From the sequence record OZ346187.1: a stretch of 64,000 nucleotides of DNA. One strand, 5' to 3'. Source of the DNA: a phage. Below, one piece after another: positions 1,593-14,620 of this stretch. Every line of letters starts with the position of its first letter. The stretch's first letter is position 1. The notes beneath the pieces were generated by a model, which saw only the letters and a program-made list of their open reading frames with translations, had not been told where the DNA came from and did not search any database. Made by a program: the position numbers and the translations under genes.

Positions 1593-2357
1593 TTGAAATT
1601 CATCTACAAAGAACACTACCACAAAGGTGTTGTGTGGAGTCTATTTGACGGGTCTGGTGGTGCAGTTATTGACTGGGCAAAAGCTGGGTACCTGTGCCTG
1701 TGCTTTAATGCAGAAGGTGCTGACCACGGCAGTTATGCAGAGGTGATAACCGATCATCCTAACATTCACTATGTGGATTATTGGATTGACCCATGGTTCC
1801 CTCAGGAAACTTTTTGCATGTATCCAGCTCCAGACTTTATTCTTGCATTTCCTCCGTGCACGCATTTAGCGGTATCAGGTGCTGCACATTTTAAGAAAAA
1901 GCTGGCTAAGGATCCTTTGATCCAAATTAATGCTGTAAAGGATGCTCGGGTTGCGGAAGAGTTGGGAGAGATTTACGATTGCCCGTGGCATGTAGAGAAT
2001 CCTGTAGGGGTTATGTCCACACTGTGGCGAAAACCTGATTACCGTTTTCATCCTTCGGATTATGGTGGGTATTTACCGGAGGATGATGTAAACCCCTGGT
2101 TTCCTGAATTTATAGCTCCACGTGATGCCTACCCAAAAATAACTTGCGGCTGGATAGGCAATGGATTTATAATCCCGGCCACAAAACCTGTCCCGCAAAT
2201 AGTTGACGCGGTTAGCGGGTATTCCATGCAACACGCCAAGCTGGGTGGAAAGAGTGCAAGAACGAAGATGATCCGAAGCCTCACGCCACGTGGCTGGGCA
2301 AAAGCCGTATTCTTAGCAAACGAGCCTGTAGTAAGGAGCAGAATTAATGGGAAGTAA
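1593..2357 (+). CDS. putative cytosine-5 DNA methyltransferase-like protein
   Basis: LFDGSGG (motif I-like), FPPCTHLAVSG (PC motif IV-like), WHVENPVG (ENV motif VI); probable TTG start after GGAGA RBS; start uncertain. Confidence 0.4.
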   Translation: MKFIYKEHYHKGVVWSLFDGSGGAVIDWAKAGYLCLCFNAEGADHGSYAEVITDHPNIHYVDYWIDPWFPQETFCMYPAPDFILAFPPCTHLAVSGAAHFKKKLAKDPLIQINAVKDARVAEELGEIYDCPWHVENPVGVMSTLWRKPDYRFHPSDYGGYLPEDDVNPWFPEFIAPRDAYPKITCGWIGNGFIIPATKPVPQIVDAVSGYSMQHAKLGGKSARTKMIRSLTPRGWAKAVFLANEPVVRSRINGK

Positions 2358-4425
2358 ATTTATGGCATCTGCATACAACCGTTTCGGTGAGCCAAACCCG
2401 AAAGCAATTAAGTATAAAAGTGGGGGAAGTGTGAAACGAGACTATCGTGATGAAAAAGAGGTTGAAACTGTAGAGACTGTTTTAGAAAATACTAAAATCG
2501 TCCCTGTCCCACAACAAAATATCGGTCTGATGGCTGCACAATATTTTGGTGTGCGATCAGCATTGTCCCAAGAAGACGGTGTGACAGTCACTGCAACATA
2601 TTTCCCATATTACGACCGATACGGAAATCTGTCCGGTTTCAAAAAGCGTGACTGGACTATTCCTAAAGAACAAAGGGGCCACTTCTCCGTTGTTGGCATA
2701 GTAAAGGCCAACTCCCAGATGTTTGGTCAAAAGCTGTGTGCATCTTCCAACAACCGTAAGCAGATTAACGTTTGTGAGGGAGAAGGTGATGTTATTGCAG
2801 CATGGCAGGCTGCATATCAGATACAAGTAAAAGGGATTCTCACCAACGCTAAAGCCCCGGCAAAGGTGAAGCAGTGGGCTAAAGAGGTCCAGGACGGGAT
2901 CGACGCAGTTATCAACGGTGGTGATCTGGCAGGAAAACCCTGCCTGCCTTTTGTTGGAATTAACTGTGGATGTGCAAACGCAGTAGATACTTTTGCAAAC
3001 AATGAGAAGTTTATCCGTAGCTATGGAACAGTTGTGCTGGCAATGGATAACGATGCAGCTAACGAGGTAGAGAAGCAAAAACACGTCATTAAAGGTGTTG
3101 AGGCCACGCACAATATCGCAGCATTTTTGATGGCTGATAACGTTTACCACGTAGAATACCCTGGTGAAGTAAATGACCCTGACGGGGTAAAAGATATCCG
3201 TGACATGCTGAAGGCTAAAAAGCTGGAAGATATTGTCAACATGTTCCGGCACCCTGTTAAATATGTGCCTGATGCTGTGTCGGATTTAGAAGACTTCTCT
3301 ATCGAGTCTTTGCGGAAAAAGACTTCCAACGGGGTAGATATCAGCGCAGAGTTCCCAAAACTGCAAAAAATGCTAAAAGGCTTGCACAAAGGGACACTCG
3401 TAATGCTTACAGGGCCATCAGGGGGCGGTAAAACAACTGTAGCTAAAAAACTGGAACATTGTATTGCAAGATACCTAATGGACCCGACATGCCCGAAGGC
3501 TGATGACTATGAAGAGGATGATCGTCTATGTATGATCCATCTTGAGGAGGACCCAGAGGAAGCAATTAACTCCTTGTATGCAAACCAGTTAGGGTTTGAT
3601 GTTAAAGAGTTTGTTGAAGATCCTAGCCAGTTTTTAACTGATCAAGAACACGCAGAGATTCACCAATCATGGGCAAAAGCTGGAAAAATCAAAGTGTTCA
3701 AACATTTCGGATCTATTCCGGTGGACGAGTTGATTACCAAGCTTAAGCAAATGGTTTGCCTGTACCATTGCCGTTATATTGTGCTGGATCACCTATCCAT
3801 GGTAATTTCAGGGCTTAATGTTAAGGATGAGCGAAAAGAACTGGACATGGCTATGACTCAGCTGGCTGCGTTTTGTAAGCAGTTTAACGTGTTTATCTTG
3901 GTGATCGCTCACCTCAAACGTACAGAGATTGTGCCTCCTAAGGACAAGGATGGTAACCCGTTACCTTTCTGGTATCCTGTGCGAAAAGAGAATTTGCGAG
4001 GATCGGCGGGGCTTGAACAGTTGAGTTGGGTAGTCATAGGTGTCGAGGCCGAAGAAATGGTGGATCGTTCTCGTGGACGTGTCCGTCTGGTAGGTCTTAA
4101 AAACCGTCCAGCAAAAACTCTAGGTATTGCTGACACTTTGGTTATGGACCCGCACACAGGTAAGTTCCATGATGCCAGTAATTGGTACTGGGACAAAGAA
4201 ATGCAAATGTTTACAGACGGAGAAGGTGGGGAGGTTGTTTGGAGACCTCAGGCTATGTTTGAGGATCAGGAGCATGCAGTTGTAGAAACACCTATGGGCA
4301 AGGTTGTGGCTGATAAGGTTGTAACTCCTACTGTTAAGCCTGTTGACACGCAGGAAGACCTCCAGTACGATGATCCATCCTCTGACCCGGTCCCTGGTTT
4401 TGAGGATGATGAAACGCCTTTTTAA
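2347..4425 (+). CDS. primase-helicase (TOPRIM primase fused to DnaB-like helicase)
   Basis: TOPRIM-like CEGEGD and VLAMDNDAANE; Walker A GPSGGGKTT; Walker B IVLDHLS; 692 aa. Confidence 0.7.
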   Translation: MGSKFMASAYNRFGEPNPKAIKYKSGGSVKRDYRDEKEVETVETVLENTKIVPVPQQNIGLMAAQYFGVRSALSQEDGVTVTATYFPYYDRYGNLSGFKKRDWTIPKEQRGHFSVVGIVKANSQMFGQKLCASSNNRKQINVCEGEGDVIAAWQAAYQIQVKGILTNAKAPAKVKQWAKEVQDGIDAVINGGDLAGKPCLPFVGINCGCANAVDTFANNEKFIRSYGTVVLAMDNDAANEVEKQKHVIKGVEATHNIAAFLMADNVYHVEYPGEVNDPDGVKDIRDMLKAKKLEDIVNMFRHPVKYVPDAVSDLEDFSIESLRKKTSNGVDISAEFPKLQKMLKGLHKGTLVMLTGPSGGGKTTVAKKLEHCIARYLMDPTCPKADDYEEDDRLCMIHLEEDPEEAINSLYANQLGFDVKEFVEDPSQFLTDQEHAEIHQSWAKAGKIKVFKHFGSIPVDELITKLKQMVCLYHCRYIVLDHLSMVISGLNVKDERKELDMAMTQLAAFCKQFNVFILVIAHLKRTEIVPPKDKDGNPLPFWYPVRKENLRGSAGLEQLSWVVIGVEAEEMVDRSRGRVRLVGLKNRPAKTLGIADTLVMDPHTGKFHDASNWYWDKEMQMFTDGEGGEVVWRPQAMFEDQEHAVVETPMGKVVADKVVTPTVKPVDTQEDLQYDDPSSDPVPGFEDDETPF

Positions 4426-4487: not shown

Positions 4488-7400
4488 ATGAGTATGTGGA
4501 ATTTTGACTTTGAGGCCTCAGGTCTTCTGGACGAGGAAGATCTTTACTACCATTGTGGCCTGTTTAAAGAGTTGAATAAAAATAATTTTATGTTGTTTTT
4601 GCCTATCAATGATAGATCTCATTACAGTGAAGAGGAGGTTGAAAAAGCAAAACAATTTATGCTGGCAAAGCAAGATATCTATCCTAGCTGCTCTGTCCGT
4701 ATTGCGGATTTCAGCCAGCTTGAATGGTGGTTAACCGGGAACTCCGATTGGTCACCCACATCATTAAGTTGTCACAACTGTTTTAGTTATGACTTTATCT
4801 TGATGGAGAAGCTGTCTGGTATTCATTTTGATATGTTCCGTGATCCCAAGTGTATGGGGACAATCAATAATCATCAGGTGAACCTGTTCGACACTCTGCC
4901 AATGAGTCGTATACTATGGCCCGACAGACCGTTACCTAAAGGATGCCCTGATTCTGTATACAATCCTGTTACAAAACGTATGCAGCAGGTAGGTCCTCAT
5001 GGCCTAATGGCGTGGGGGTACGCTTTAGGAAACCAGAAGGTTAAAATTGATGACTGGAGAAATTTACCTCTGTGGAAGTATGTTGATCGTGTATTCGAGG
5101 ACGTTATCATCCAGGAGCTGCTCTGGAAAGAGCTGGTAGCGGAATCAAAAGGTGTATTCTACGGCAAATCTGACATGCAGAACTTTATGTACGATCCAGC
5201 CAAAGAGAAGCCGAAAGGGTTCAAGAAGATTACCTGGAAGAATGCATTACGCCGAGGCATGCTGCAGCACTTCCTGATGGAGCTGCAGGCCCGTCAGGGT
5301 GTATACTTCGACATAGATGGAGCTATTGCTTTACGTGACCGTTGCGATGCGTGGATGAAAGAAATCGCTGATCGTGTTGAACCACAACTACCTTTAAAAG
5401 AGCTGTCAATGTCTCAGCGGCCCAAGTTCCCTGAAAAGCCGTTTAACCAAGACGGGACAATCTCTAATAATGGTTGGAAATGGTTAAAAGATAAGCTTGG
5501 CTATCCTGTAGACATGAGTGCTTTAGAGTTCAAAGCCCCGCCTAAGCGAGCATTTACCTCTACAGGAGATGTCAGCAAGATGGGGATAAAATGGTGTGAA
5601 GAGATGGGCTGCAAAGACCCCGATAAGATGGCTGATTTCTTGAGAGGCTATATTAAGGGCACCTCCACACCACAACCCTTACCTAAAGAGCTGATGGATC
5701 AGGCAATAAGTGATCTGCAGCAGAAGCGAATGCCTGACTGCAAGATACCTATGAAAATCAGCAATCAGGACGACATCAAGCGATACCTAATCAGTGCTGG
5801 TTGGCTCCCAACAATGTGGAGAACTAAAGATGTAACTAAAGACAGCAAGAAGAAAGCTTTACCTGATGCAGATGTTGATGCACGAGTATATGCATATATG
5901 GACGAGCTTTTGGAGTCAGAGTATTGTGACCTAATTATCAACTTCTGGAACAAAACTGATGCTAAGTTCCAGACAACCGTGCACAAGTTCCGAAGCTTTC
6001 CTAACTCCGAAAGGATTAAAAAGGAAGTATTCGGGAAAATACGTAGAAAAGCCAGGGCACTTATTACTTCTCCGCAACTGAAAGATACGTTTGGACACCT
6101 ATGCCCAAATCTTGAAAAATTGAACGGAGAGATGGCTAAAGATATCGTCTTGTGGTTATCATTGCGAAACCGCAGATCGGTCCTTGATCCAATCAAGGAG
6201 GATAAGGTTGATACTGGTCTTCTTAATCACCCACGTTTGAAGATTGACCATAAGCTTCCTGCTAAAAGCTCTGGATTAACAAACACTTCCAGACAGAAAC
6301 ACAGTATTTGTGCAAACATGCCTAAACCATCTCCTAAAGTGGTTATGGGTAAAGAGATGCGTAGTCTGTGGGGTGTTCCTCCGGGATACTTTGAGATCGG
6401 TATTGACGGGTCCAACTTAGAGCAGCTTATCGGGGCTTGGGGTGCCTTTGAGTTCGACAACGGCCTGTATTATGATGTTGTAAGTAATGGCGATGCACAC
6501 TGTTATTCAGGAGATACACAAATTCTCACGGAGAAAGGGTGGGTGAGGTTTGAAGATCTTGATCCGGGAACACAAGTGTTCCAGTACGATCACAACACCT
6601 CGTCAATGAACCTTGTTACTCCATTAAATTACGTTAAGCGTAGTTATTGTGGGGATATGTATCATTTCCACAACAGTAGTGTGGATTTTATGGTTACAGA
6701 TCAACACAGGATGCTGACTGTGGATCACAGAAGCAATAAATTGTTTGAAGATTTGGCAAAAGACCTGAAAGCAGGTAAAGGGTCTAATTCAGGAAGAAGG
6801 TTTATCCATGCGGCAGAGTTTTATGGGAATACAACCTTATCTCCTGCCCAGGTTAATTTGCTTATTGCTATTCACGATGATGGGCACTTGCATACAAATA
6901 AGGACGGCAGCATCGTGTGCAGGATTCAGGTCGGAAAGGGAAGAAAAGTTGCAACGCTTTTAGATACTTTTTCTGCTCTAAGCCTTAGTTATGTAGAGCA
7001 GAGCGGGAAAACCACAAAAGGGGGCTTACTGGCGAGAAGGTTCCAATTCCACGTTCCGTCCTGGGTATTTGAGTTTTTGGACAACAATAAGGATTTCACC
7101 TATAACCTGATGAACCTTGATAAAGAATCTAAAAACCTGTTTATAGCTTCTTTATCTAACTGGGACGGGTGGGTATCTTCCGAAGGTGGAAAGGTTGCTT
7201 ACTACTCCCAGGCCGAGTGCAGGAAGAAATCTGTAGAGGTGGTGTCTGCGCTGGCTACTCAGTGTGGTTTACGGAATAATACGGTGGCGATTCACAAAAA
7301 AGGTCGTGCCGTGCAGCACAGAATCACAATTGGTAGCAAACAGAGAGCAGGGTTGCTGACACTATCTAAAGAGTCTGTCGAGGTGAGCGGTTCTTTGGTT

Positions 7401-7880
7401 TATTGCGTTACCGTCCCTTCTGGAGCAATCATTGTGAGAAGGAATGGTAAAGTGGCAGTGTGCGGTAACTGTAATAACGCCAAAGCTTACTCTTCTGTAG
7501 CAGGCAAGGAGATTTCCCGTAACGATGGTAAACCTATCACGTATGGGGTTATGTATGGGGCACAAAAAGATAAAGTTGCAGATATGCTGGACATCTCCCC
7601 AGAGTTGGGACAAAGGGTAATCGATGCACTCTGGGATGCCAACCCAGGTCTTAAGGGGCGCAAAGAGGATCTGGAGAAATTCTGGGAAGCAACAGGTAAG
7701 AAGTTTATCTACTCTTTTGATGGTCATGCTATCTGGACCCGATCTAAACACTCTTTACTTAATGCATACCAACAAAATGGCGGTGCATCGTTGTGTGACT
7801 TAGTTGGAATACTCATGCACCACCAGATGGTGAAGCGTGGGTGGTACGATGAAGGTGTTCGTCGTATTATTTATTACCAT
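4488..7880 (+). CDS. DNA polymerase, family A (T7 gp5-like), exon 1, containing an intein
   Basis: N-terminal FDFEASGL...YHCG exonuclease motif; motif A-like IDGSNLEQL; motif B-like RNDGKPITYGVMYGAQ; ORF stop at 7884-7886 is assigned to the intron. Confidence 0.8.
6501..7469 (+). mobile_element. intein with LAGLIDADG-type homing endonuclease, in-frame between polymerase motifs A and B
   Basis: Starts CYSGDTQILTEKG (intein block A); two LAGLIDADG-like motifs (LLIAIHDDGHL, FIASLSNWDGWV); ends ...VAVCGN followed by Cys at 7470; 969 nt, frame preserved. Confidence 0.65.
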
Positions 7881-8132
7881 AAATAACATTGTGGCTTCAT
7901 AGAGTAATCTATGTCGAATAACCTCTTTAACTGCGGGAAGCCTAAACCTTATGGCAAGGTAATCCGCAACGAAGCGCTCAAAAGAGCGAACGCTCAGAGG
8001 CCATTCCGAAAGGAAGTAGACCAGCAAGTGCGGTCGAAATGGGAGGATTCCTGTGGTTGCTTATCATAGGAATATGAGATGGTCCGATCCTACGTGAAAA
8101 CGTATGGCTATGCACGTAATGGTGCGGGGTAG
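7881..8132 (+). mobile_element. ORF-less group I intron in the DNA polymerase gene
   Basis: P-like CTGCGGGAAGCC and Q-like AATCCGCAACG elements; exon ends in U (7880) that can pair with GUGG 11 nt downstream (P1); ACGU-GAAA-ACGU hairpin near 3' end; last nt G (8132); joining 7880 to 8133 keeps frame. Confidence 0.55.
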
Positions 8133-11319: not shown

Positions 11320-11688
11320 ATGGAACAAATGAACGATCAAGAGTCGGTTGCGATGAACGAGCAAGAACAACCTCAAGAATTTTTCTTAGGGTTAAGTAAA
11401 GATCAAGTGTCTCTTTTGCTAGTGCTTTCTTCTTTCATGGGAAGACTTCAGGAGCTCACACAACAACCGGAGGCTGAACAATTATTTCAGGCTCTGCGTG
11501 AAGAAGAAAAATATCGTCGTTTGGACTATGCCTTAGGTTGGGTAGCTCAACAACGAGATATGCTGATGGCCCTCTCTGGGACCACAAGTTTTGCAATGGG
11601 CCTGTTGGCTCAAGTTCAGGACAAATTAATTCAAGCAGGGTTTGCACACACGGCAAACACTAACGAAGAACAAGGAGACAAAGAATGA
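11320..11688 (+). CDS. hypothetical protein
   Basis: 122-aa ORF after GGAGA RBS. Confidence 0.4.
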   Translation: MEQMNDQESVAMNEQEQPQEFFLGLSKDQVSLLLVLSSFMGRLQELTQQPEAEQLFQALREEEKYRRLDYALGWVAQQRDMLMALSGTTSFAMGLLAQVQDKLIQAGFAHTANTNEEQGDKE

Positions 11689-12911
11689 GCGTTATTCAAC
11701 AATTCGCTAACCCGATGAATCCGCGTGAAACTGTTTTACTGGCTCACGGCATGATTAAACGCGTCAGCATCAAGCCTATCAAAGGTGCTGATCCTACAAC
11801 AGGTATTAAAACCACTGTGTGGCAAGGTAAGAAAATTGAATCCAGCCACACCATCTCTTTACTGATTTCTGAACTGGATTCCTCTGATAACCTACTTCAA
11901 GGTGGTGAAGAAGTTTGGATCAGTATGGGCGATAAGCTGCTTAAACCGGGTCATCAAGACTCTGTCTCTGTTAAAATTGATGACAAGTGGGAAACCGTAA
12001 CGCCAGGATGGATCGTAAATATCCCTTTGAAGGCAAACGAGCATAACGGTAAGACCTACTACAAAGGCTCACTGGCTAAGATGGTTAAGCTGGGTGCAGG
12101 AGAGGCTCCAGCAGCGACTCAGCAGCAAAAACAGCAACAAGGTGCACAATCACAAGGCCAGAAGCAGAAACCTCAGCAGAATGCCAATCAGGACGTTTTA
12201 CGCATCTATGGTGATGTGACTCAGATTGTTGGCAACGTGGTTACTGTAAATGACCACAAGATTGGCGAAGGTGCTATGGTTGTAACTGATGAGCAGCTTA
12301 AAGACCTGGTGGTAGGTGGTCGTGTTGCAGCCATTGTTGACAAAGACACTGGAAACATTATCAGTGGTTTCAAGGCCTATCCTCCTAAGGCAGAGAACGG
12401 CACTCAAGGCTCCGGTGGCAAGCGTAAATCCTCTTACGACCCTATCGGTGTGGAAACGGGGCATAGCATCAATGCGTTGCAGATCATCCTGGATCGCGGG
12501 TTTAAGGTAGACGACCCACTGGGCGTGGCTAAAACACTGCACGTAGTCACCATTGAGCTTAAGAAAGAGTATGCTCAAGCCACCAACCGAACTGAAGATG
12601 AAGTAGGTGCCAGTGTCGGTAATGCGGTGTTGAACGCTTGTCGCCGTATTGACAAGAAAACGAAAGTTGATGATTTTGCAGCGGCAATTACTGCAGAAGC
12701 AAAAGATGTCTTGACTAATCTGGCTGAGCCGTTGTACGATTGGATCAAGAACGGTGCTGGGTCAACTGACCATCAAGAACCTCAGGCTGCCAAACAGGAA
12801 GCAGCTCCACAGCAAAACACTGTAGACGCTCCTCCTGTAAATGATGGGGAAGATGACCCGATGGATCAGAATCCAGCACAGTACGCCTTTGATGATGACA
12901 TCCCTTTTTAA
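11685..12911 (+). CDS. putative single-stranded DNA-binding-like protein with SSB-type acidic C-terminal tail
   Basis: 408 aa; Q-rich low-complexity linker (QQQKQQQGAQSQGQKQKPQQ); terminates ...FDDDIPF, the canonical bacterial SSB tail. Confidence 0.4.
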   Translation: MSVIQQFANPMNPRETVLLAHGMIKRVSIKPIKGADPTTGIKTTVWQGKKIESSHTISLLISELDSSDNLLQGGEEVWISMGDKLLKPGHQDSVSVKIDDKWETVTPGWIVNIPLKANEHNGKTYYKGSLAKMVKLGAGEAPAATQQQKQQQGAQSQGQKQKPQQNANQDVLRIYGDVTQIVGNVVTVNDHKIGEGAMVVTDEQLKDLVVGGRVAAIVDKDTGNIISGFKAYPPKAENGTQGSGGKRKSSYDPIGVETGHSINALQIILDRGFKVDDPLGVAKTLHVVTIELKKEYAQATNRTEDEVGASVGNAVLNACRRIDKKTKVDDFAAAITAEAKDVLTNLAEPLYDWIKNGAGSTDHQEPQAAKQEAAPQQNTVDAPPVNDGEDDPMDQNPAQYAFDDDIPF

Positions 12912-12925
12912 CAATTAGTTAACAT

Positions 12926-12954
12926 AGCCCTGCCCGAAAGGGTGGGGCATTTTT
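12926..12954 (+). terminator. rho-independent terminator
   Basis: Same GCCCTGCCC-GAAA-GGGTGGGGC hairpin as at 1547, followed by T-run. Confidence 0.6.
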
Positions 12955-12973
12955 GTATAAGGAGATCTGAAAA

Positions 12974-13752: not shown

Positions 13753-14172
13753 ATGATCTATGAAATGCCAAAACTGATTCGTGACGATGCCCAAAACCAC
13801 ACCATTATTATGGGTAAACGCATGAATATCCTTTGCCGTAACGATTTCTGTGGTGTAGAATACGTTGCAGACTACTTCGGTGAGAATGGTAAACACCCTG
13901 TTCAGTTCTTCCTTGACCATGAGGATAACATTATCTGGGAGTTTGAAACTGAAGATATCCGCAACCTCTTCATCTTCCTCGGTGTCAAGGTTAAGGCCAA
14001 TTTCGCGGAAGGTGAGTGCGACGATTGTGGATTTTATGAGGTGACAGACTTCTATCTCCCGAGTGGCAAGAACATTTACTATGAGAGTCACTTCGGAAAC
14101 ACCAACATGCCTCAAAGCTGGGAAGAATTTTTCAGTATCGTAGAAGAGGAGCTGGCATACCGTGATTATTGA
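13753..14172 (+). CDS. hypothetical protein
   Basis: 139-aa ORF. Confidence 0.4.
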   Translation: MIYEMPKLIRDDAQNHTIIMGKRMNILCRNDFCGVEYVADYFGENGKHPVQFFLDHEDNIIWEFETEDIRNLFIFLGVKVKANFAEGECDDCGFYEVTDFYLPSGKNIYYESHFGNTNMPQSWEEFFSIVEEELAYRDY

Positions 14173-14620
14173 TACTGTAAAGGGAGATTTAATCTCCCTT
14201 TTTAAGAGCGGTGCTGGTCACCTAATCCACGGTTGTAACTGCTTCCACACAATGGGTAAGGGCATAGCAAAACAGATTGCCCGTGAGTTTCCTCAAGCAT
14301 TGTCAGCCGACAAAGAGACCAGACACGGTTGCCTAAGTAAACTGGGTGCGTTCTCCCGATGGGAGCACTTATCTCCGAGAGGTATTGTCTACGGAATCAA
14401 TCTGTATACTCAGTTCTACCCAGGGCCTAATGCTGAATATTTCTCAATCCTGAAAGGCTTTGAGCTAGTCAATGAGGTATTCGAGGGATCGACTTTACCA
14501 TTCTACATCCCTAAGATCGGATGCGGCATAGGCGGTTTGAAGTGGGAGCACGTAGAGGACGTTATTAACCTCGCCACTTTTGATATAGATATTATCGTGG
14601 TGGAGTACAAAGAGTGTTGA
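14162..14620 (+). CDS. macro-domain-like (ADP-ribose binding/processing) protein
   Basis: HGCNCFHTMGKGIAKQIAREFP and IPKIGCGIGG resemble the conserved core of one macro-domain subfamily. Confidence 0.45.
   Translation: MIIDTVKGDLISLFKSGAGHLIHGCNCFHTMGKGIAKQIAREFPQALSADKETRHGCLSKLGAFSRWEHLSPRGIVYGINLYTQFYPGPNAEYFSILKGFELVNEVFEGSTLPFYIPKIGCGIGGLKWEHVEDVINLATFDIDIIVVEYKEC

Follow-up and report, generated by a model that had tools for sequence, protein, structure and literature searches.

An SSB-like protein with a host-type C-terminal tip in the replication module of an rV5-like phage

We describe a 408-residue protein of an rV5-like Escherichia phage that carries the C-terminal tip of E. coli SSB (single-stranded DNA-binding protein) and that is probably the phage's own ssDNA-binding protein, working with a T7-type replisome made up of a family-A DNA polymerase and a gp4-like primase-helicase. 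The core of this result, an SSB-like protein with a host-type tip, is already known from a 2026 preprint that combines prediction and genetics on a 99%-identical orthologue. To this our analysis adds the scope of the protein family, which is unrelated in sequence to known SSB families yet has an SSB-type tip in almost all of its members; negative results from tests of membership in known families; a cognate primase-helicase with the same kind of tip, which suggests T7-like docking of tails; and a conserved peptide that in some relatives follows, and presumably masks, the tip. The family scope, the primase-helicase tip and this peptide were not found in the literature searched.

Phages related to rV5 (Vequintavirinae) are frequently put forward for phage therapy, and most of their replication proteins lack annotation. 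Identifying the gene product as the probable SSB closes a gap in the replisome and explains why this group of phages trips defences based on ssDNA or cDNA, such as DRT10, although that much is already contained in the preprint. The window analyzed here, a stretch of 64,000 nucleotides of phage DNA (sequence record OZ346187.1), shares 92-99% identity with 116 records from rV5-like Escherichia phages (Vequintavirus), and in nearly all of the matches listed among these near-identical records the gene for the SSB-like protein is annotated as 'hypothetical protein'.

Results

The gene and its setting

The initial annotation had singled out a 408-aa open reading frame ending in FDDDIPF, and this ORF is real. 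It starts with ATG, preceded by a Shine-Dalgarno sequence AAGGAGA 6 nt to the 5' side, and the hairpin of an intrinsic terminator, which closes the transcription unit, begins 16 nt 3' of the gene. Calculated by composition, the window, with its 355 stop-to-stop ORFs of 60 codons or more, is expected to contain ~5.6e-6 C-terminal DDDIPF tips by chance; a PF end of any kind occurs in just three of its ORFs, and residues P407 and F408 are invariant in an alignment of 30 family sequences. The translation ends in ...NPAQYAFDDDIPF, the tail-end peptide up to the last residue F408 being PAQYAFDDDIPF; AFDDDIPF stands directly before the stop codon, so that the C-terminus is free (uncapped) in the allele of the window. 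The coordinates of all features are collected in Table 1.

Table 1. Positions in the window of the SSB-like gene, its parts and the neighbouring features discussed in the text
Feature	Position	Strand	Description
T7-gp4-like primase-helicase	2347..4425	+	Pfam DnaB_C/AAA_25; C-terminus ...PGFEDDETPF
Family-A DNA polymerase with intein-like insert	4488..7886	+	annotation of orthologue; weak DNA_pol_A and Hint hits
Upstream 122-aa gene	11320..11688	+	PHROG 7310; stop overlaps start of SSB-like gene (ATGA)
SSB-like protein, complete gene	11685..12911	+	408 aa, ATG start; ORF and translation
Domain 1 (aa 1-139)	11685..12101	+	predicted all-beta, elaborated OB fold; candidate ssDNA-binding domain; pLDDT 80-91
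Linker 1 (aa 140-169)	12102..12191	+	Q/K-rich, predicted disordered; pLDDT <50
Domain 2 (aa 170-235)	12192..12389	+	predicted minimal OB topology, a small barrel of five strands and one short helix; pLDDT 80-84
Domain 3 (aa 250-356)	12432..12752	+	predicted four-helix bundle; pLDDT ~90-95
Acidic tail (aa 357-402)	12753..12890	+	P/Q/A/D/E-rich, predicted disordered; pLDDT <50
C-terminal tip DDDIPF	12891..12908	+	identical to last six residues of E. coli SSB; stop codon follows
Intrinsic terminator	12927..12957	+	hairpin 12927-12948, 9-bp G+C-rich stem, and T-run

The SSB-like gene is the last in a co-oriented block that comprises a helicase, a cytosine methyltransferase, the gp4-like primase-helicase, the family-A DNA polymerase, about ten small ORFs and the 122-aa ORF. 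The ATGA overlap between the last of these and the SSB-like gene suggests translational coupling. As a conserved partner the 122-aa gene is ruled out, since it is not kept upstream of the loci that encode a shorter form of the protein (see below).

No second canonical SSB was detected in the window by tblastn with E. coli SSB, a search of low sensitivity, which matched only the tail of the SSB-like protein. The annotation of JLBYU08, inspected over its first 100 kb (~100 of 137 kb, the last ~37 kb being assumed to hold virion genes), and that of the inspected 25 kb of Bas57 show no other SSB either, and the genome paper on rV5 names a ligase, a polymerase and two helicases in a list from which an SSB is absent. 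The position in the replication module, together with the lack of another recognisable SSB and with the acidic tail ending in xPF, supports reading the protein as an SSB.

Predicted domain architecture

An AlphaFold2 model was built from the 30-sequence alignment, as monomers only, and contains three confident domains with disordered linkers between them, the disordered stretches being aa 140-169, 237-249 and 363-408. The OB fold for which the initial annotation had recommended a search is present in the model, in domain 1. The proposal of a phage SSB with an extra domain holds in so far as the model adds a four-helix bundle and another, small barrel that is OB-like. At the level of sequence, the folded domains match no SSB profile. 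Likewise, a Q-rich low-complexity linker exists, but at aa ~144-168, between domains 1 and 2, and not next to the tail as had been described; the length of this linker differs among close relatives, with indels in P0002 and P0005. The remark that the protein is far longer than a typical SSB is correct (408 aa compared to 178 aa for E. coli SSB).

Domain 3, when modelled alone, reaches a pLDDT of 91 and a pTM of 0.83, and it contains six of the nine invariant internal positions in the 30-sequence alignment, those of its two GxxxG motifs (G255-G259 and G308-G312) and D252 included. In the model, D252 is located where helix 1 begins and Y351 where helix 4 ends, and the two thus lie at the same end of the up-down bundle; 88% of 184 aligned sequences (the query and 183 family members) have Asp at position 252. 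Domain 1 has conserved aromatic residues at five positions (H55, W78, W102, H/Y120 and Y126) and a lysine at K123, a pattern that is consistent with base stacking on ssDNA.

The charge of domain 1, by comparison, is not markedly basic: its 17 K+R are nearly balanced by 15 D+E, which counts against the SSB reading. The near-neutral charge would be easier to understand if the OB-like barrels bound a protein or some other ligand, the protein being a scaffold that does not bind DNA and whose tail bridges the phage polymerase to something else, and such a scaffold would also agree with the lack of a sequence-level link to any nucleic-acid-binding family. We nevertheless regard this as very improbable in view of the structural evidence: the best structural matches are consistently proteins that bind ssDNA, aromatic residues are kept in the OB domain, and SSBs are characterised by just such an OB fold followed by a disordered linker and an acidic tip; moreover, DRT10, in whose activation an orthologue takes part, makes ssDNA/cDNA. 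In the Foldseek comparison against models of viral proteins (BFVD), members of the same family rank first, and weaker matches (E ~0.004-0.06) include DUF2815, 'phage ssDNA-binding domain', 'helix destabilizing protein' and LEF-3.

Membership in sequence families

The protein is a member of PHROG 4477, the orthologous group of Bas52_0087; residues 1-408 match positions 1-393 of the 393 positions in the phrog_4477 profile with E=2.9e-173. When Pfam, NCBIfam and PDB sequences were searched, neither the single protein nor the family profile gave a match to the folded domains. In particular, the SSB family PF00436 had no hit in the protein or in any of 30 relatives, and TIGR00621 scored 11.7 bits, against a cut-off of 53.95, over the tail alone. 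In the profile search of PDB sequences, E. coli SSB was aligned over the last 26 profile positions only (E=0.37). No part of the protein other than the tail (aa 357-402), which weakly resembles the end of the E. coli SSB linker, can be aligned to E. coli SSB or to ssb profiles, and the tail aligns below threshold. This absence of any match of the folded domains to SSB, gp2.5 or other profiles is a second observation that speaks against the SSB reading.

Membership in the family of T7 gp2.5 was ruled out at the profile level and by the lack of a Pfam hit. Comparison by hhalign with an alignment of 121 gp2.5 sequences gave probabilities of 0.1% for domain 1, 6.3% for domain 2 and 0.1% for domain 3. 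These numbers bear on the idea that the protein is not a general SSB but a recombination mediator or annealing protein, which loads on or anneals ssDNA in recombination-dependent replication. The succession of an OB domain and a helical domain recalls RecO, T7 gp2.5 is itself annotated as a ssDNA-binding and annealing protein, and a recombinase or SSAP is absent from the inspected annotated parts of related genomes. The matches to RecO and DdrC, however, are no better than dozens of unrelated ones, RecO binds the SSB tip and does not carry one, and gp2.5 has no profile similarity to the protein studied here, so that we consider a mediator role improbable.

Spread and conservation of the family

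A search of 1.84 billion representative proteins with the family profile (E up to 1e-3) places about 250 clusters at 50% identity in the family, and tblastn finds the gene in 359 phage records. The carriers include Vequintavirinae (rV5, PVP-SE1, phiTE, GAP31 and 4MG), Stephanstirmvirinae (phi92 and phAPEC8-like phages) and others. Two forms of the protein can be distinguished, namely a long form of ~350-420 aa, which consists of domains 1, 2 and 3 and the tail, and a more diverse short form of ~260-310 aa without domain 2. Domain 3 is found in essentially all members (mean column occupancy 0.94).

The C-terminus reads [IVL]PF in 146 of 203 family proteins; in 21 more the same motif stands just before a short extension, and the remainder are mostly fragments. 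Several relatives end in EPPMDFDDDIPF, which is the sequence of the last 12 residues of E. coli SSB. An acidic tail with an xPF end characterises the family as a whole.

A matching tail on the primase-helicase

The acidic C-terminal tail with an aromatic end is found on the SSB-like protein (...FDDDIPF) and is matched on the primase-helicase of the same block (...FEDDETPF), the end of which reads in full ...DDPSSDPVPGFEDDETPF. Among the 120 best homologues of the primase-helicase, 112 have an acidic run followed by a terminal xPF, as in DFDDDTPF, EDLDSDSPF and EDDEPF. In T7, the corresponding ends are ...SNDTDF on gp4 and ...EDGDF on gp2.5; the tail of gp2.5 anchors to a basic patch on the front of the polymerase, and gp4 and gp2.5 share their docking site on the polymerase. 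By analogy, the primase-helicase is a probable partner of the SSB-like protein in tail docking, and the family-A polymerase may be the target at which acidic xPF tails dock. Since the primase-helicase shares the acidic xPF tail, the tail of the SSB-like protein may act first as a docking code inside the phage replisome, in the manner of T7, rather than purely as a mimic of the host.

The orthologue Bas52_0087 and the DRT10 defence

The closest protein for which there is functional knowledge is Bas52_0087 (QXV84166.1) of Escherichia phage (Vequintavirus) RudolfGeigy, which is identical to the protein in the window at 405 of 408 positions and is encoded at the same locus with the same neighbouring genes. 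A preprint of 30 April 2026 predicts Bas52_0087 to be SSB-like, with two OB folds, a four-helix bundle and a C-tip, and shows by genetics that it is required for activation of the reverse-transcriptase defence DRT10 (UG17), a system that makes ssDNA/cDNA (bioRxiv 10.64898/2026.04.29.721553). Two independent Bas52 mutants that escape DRT10 carry D252V or Y351C in this protein; the wild-type protein supplied in trans leads to stronger restriction and the mutant alleles to far less; Bas52_0087 alone is nontoxic, leaves the viability of E. coli unaffected and is not sufficient as a trigger of DRT10; and overproduction of the host exonuclease SbcB weakens the defence (bioRxiv 10.64898/2026.04.29.721553). 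Both escape alleles are missense and not null, as would fit an essential gene, although two mutants only lend weak support to this. Vequintavirinae and Stephanstirmvirinae are both restricted by DRT10 and both encode members of the family. A separate candidate link to retrons was rejected: the retron trigger of Bas51 is a Dam methyltransferase and not the SSB-like gene, and the literature on Retron Eco2 and Retron-Vpa2 contains no link to the gene.

The genetics bear on a further alternative, a form of which the initial annotation had put forward, namely that the protein competes for the partners of SSB. As a decoy or hijacker it would have its main role not in replication but in vying with host SSB for ExoI, RecQ, RecJ, PriA, Pol III chi and Ung; the tip would serve to shut down host repair, to protect the ends of phage DNA or to blunt ssDNA-based defences, and the OB domains would merely localise the protein. 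This explanation draws on the identity of the tip with that of E. coli SSB, which in several relatives extends over the last 12 residues (EPPMDFDDDIPF), and on the connection of the DRT10 phenotype with exonuclease I (SbcB), a known partner of the SSB C-terminus. On the other hand, expression of the orthologue left the viability of E. coli unchanged, although a strong competitor of an essential hub would be expected to impair it; the primase-helicase has a tail of this kind too, so that the motif has a function within the replisome of the phage itself; and the gene lies in the replication block as the only SSB candidate. The competitor proposal gained no support from these results, and we think it unlikely.

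A peptide that caps the tip in some relatives

In some relatives, the IPF tip is followed by a conserved peptide of 15 residues, APVGLQYGKSRIHAL, with the consensus AP[IV]GLQY[GA]xxx[IV][YH]x[LIF]. The extension occurs in a minority of both the SSB-like proteins and the primase-helicases, and it is present in the largest protein-database cluster of the family (P0001, 423 aa, 533 member sequences). The extension shares 29-32 nt with a homing-endonuclease gene in Bas49, Bas54, nieznany and one metagenomic contig, and in phage navn a normal stop codon comes first and the same endonuclease then begins at a start of its own. Among the BASEL vequintaviruses, Bas49 and Bas54 carry the extension and Bas52, Bas56 and Bas57 lack it. 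A further locus (L019) retains no more than a relic of the homing endonuclease; at another (L015), where the extension is on the primase-helicase, an unrelated HNH_3 gene lies 57 nt away; and at two more (L016 and L017) the extension runs straight into the terminator, without an endonuclease gene downstream.

In a codon alignment, the positions A, P, I/V, G, L, Q and Y of the extension show synonymous codon changes without loss of the peptide, so that the extension is selected as a peptide. The synonymous codons and the loci L015, L016 and L017 rule out mere read-through into a homing-endonuclease cassette as a full explanation. Removal of the extension as part of a spliced-out group I intron is ruled out as well, as there is no Rfam match and the insert consists almost entirely of the endonuclease ORF.

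Recognition of the SSB C-terminus requires the free carboxylate of the terminal Phe. For this reason the extension should mask or re-address the tip. Taken together with the tails described above, this allows for a broader picture in which the xPF tip is a docking code of the replisome on both the SSB-like protein and the primase-helicase, which coincides with the SSB code of the host, and in which the extension is a cap that is under selection, spreads horizontally, is often linked to homing endonucleases and switches the tip off or re-addresses it. We offer this picture as speculation and assign it a low probability. If it is true, the cap may provide an escape from host nucleases or defences that read the SSB tip, such as DRT10 with ExoI and SSB-sensing retrons.

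Discussion

We favour the interpretation that the gene encodes an ssDNA-binding protein of the phage. In this model, domain 1 with its elaborated OB fold would bind ssDNA at phage replication forks and in recombination intermediates, and the small OB-like domain 2 would help in binding ssDNA in the long form found in this phage. The four-helix bundle of domain 3, in which the DRT10 escape mutations lie, may provide self-association or contact with a partner. The disordered acidic tail with its DDDIPF-COOH end would act as a handle for the recruitment of proteins and would probably have as its first-order target a basic patch of the phage polymerase, in the way of gp2.5 and gp4 in T7. Since the tip is identical to that of host SSB, host SSB-interacting enzymes such as exonuclease I (SbcB) are probably also engaged; cross-talk with these partners is plausible for the same reason and would fit the genetics of DRT10. 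DRT10, for its part, would sense either the coating of ssDNA by the SSB-like protein or its interference with ExoI.

The existence of many natural alleles with 15 residues after IPF, which are expected to block canonical binding, indicates that a free tip is not indispensable in all lineages. The decoy and the recombination mediator are compatible with the model of a phage SSB, and all three alternatives considered above are less well supported than this model.

Comparison with known systems

Bas52_0087, the source of the functional knowledge, which is genetic and does not come from the protein in the window, has D252, Y351 and FDDDIPF at the same coordinates as the latter and shares with it the predicted two OB folds, four-helix bundle and disordered C-terminus with C-tip. 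The two proteins differ by three conservative or linker-region substitutions (A369T, G388E and A401S).

Plasmid- and prophage-encoded SSB paralogues also end in DDDIPF, and keep the host tip in order to use the host interactome. These paralogues of mobile elements are ordinary PF00436 proteins, whereas the family described here is unrelated to them in sequence. E. coli Ssb itself (PF00436, TIGR00621) has the same plan of an N-terminal OB fold, a disordered low-complexity linker and the acidic tip DDDIPF, but with 178 aa instead of 408 it lacks the second barrel and the four-helix bundle; the OB domain of the phage protein falls outside the SSB profiles, only its tail being alignable to E. coli SSB, below threshold.

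T7 gp2.5 (PF21265 / DUF2815) is comparable in its OB fold (predicted in the protein studied here) and in its acidic tail with a terminal Phe, which according to work from the Richardson laboratory is reportedly essential. The setting is similar as well: the polymerase belongs to family A, and the primase-helicase is of the gp4 type and likewise ends in acidic residues and Phe. The differences are that the tip of gp2.5 is DGDF and not xPF or DDDIPF, that gp2.5 lacks the four-helix bundle, and that the profile comparison is negative. For want of a profile match to bacterial SSB or to gp2.5, the SSB-like protein can be placed in neither of these families; it resembles both of them in fold, in architecture and in its tail.

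Homing-endonuclease genes and a conserved peptide at the SSB-type tip

In two phage subfamilies, homing-endonuclease genes have a hot spot directly 3' of the tip Phe codon of the SSB-like gene; in the window this site is empty. The endonucleases found at the tip have a CxxC...CxxC module in common at the N-terminus, with 54% identity across 44 aa, and the nuclease parts fused to it differ from one to another. Among the Vequintavirus records listed, 21 of 60 (about one third) give megablast alignments that end 4 nt short of the end of the SSB-like gene, a stop that fits insertion at the tip site.

At some loci the IPF or TPF tip is followed directly by a conserved 15-residue peptide, AP[IV]GLQY[GA]xxx[IV][YH]x[LIF], which is present in 21 of the 203 SSB-like proteins and, among 120 primase-helicases, in 2. 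Codons within this extension vary synonymously with the peptide itself kept, and a homing-endonuclease gene is present downstream of it at some loci and absent at others. The peptide may mask the tip.

Features at the tip, in neighbouring genes and in the polymerase gene (L, related loci)
Feature	Locus	Position (nt)	Phage
Endonuclease gene bas49_0090	L007	1655-2278	Bas49
Endonuclease gene	L013	2144-2767	Bas54
Endonuclease gene	L014	2136-2714	navn
Endonuclease gene gp213	L002	3500-3994	nieznany
Empty insertion site	window	12906-12911	
Peptide, SSB-like protein	L007	1635-1683	Bas49
Peptide, SSB-like protein	L002	3484-3528	nieznany
Peptide, SSB-like protein	L013		Bas54
Peptide, SSB-like protein	L016, L017, L018, L019		
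Peptide, primase-helicase	L015	4517-4564	
Primase-helicase C-terminus	window	4399-4425	
Polymerase ORF	window	4488-7886	
Polymerase insert	window	~6500-7497	
122-aa ORF	window	11320-11688	
Q/K-rich linker	window	12102-12191	
152-aa ORF	window	14162-14620	

The SSB-like gene, its neighbours and the replication genes

The gp4-like primase-helicase of the window itself ends in an acidic, SSB-tip-like C-terminus (...FEDDETPF*), and an xPF ending is found in 112 of 120 homologues. The Q/K-rich linker of the SSB-like protein differs in length among near-identical alleles, with deletions of 4 aa and 13 aa in the close relatives P0002 and P0005, a pattern that suggests slippage in a low-complexity coding repeat. 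Sixteen MG0656xx records are titled 'Campylobacter phage', with C. jejuni given as the host; across the SSB-like gene they match E. coli vequintaviruses at 97-98% identity, and these records are probably mislabelled or derived from contaminated preparations.

The SSB-like gene is coupled in translation, through an ATGA overlap, to an acidic 122-aa ORF. This ORF belongs to PHROG 7310, had no match in Pfam or NCBIfam, and is also labelled 'putative SSB' in one GenBank record (JLBYU08); it is not kept upstream of short-form SSB-like genes. A 152-aa ORF that lies downstream of the SSB-like gene, at a distance of four ORFs, matches PHROG 335 ('phosphatase') and appears to be the counterpart of a JLBYU08 gene annotated as a macro-domain protein.

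The family-A polymerase ORF encodes 1132 aa in this phage and includes ~996 nt of in-frame inserted sequence, which the related phage Bas57 is without. The insert starts with CYSGDTQILT..., ends with ...VAVCGN|C and has a weak Hint-domain match; it probably represents an intein that carries an endonuclease within it.
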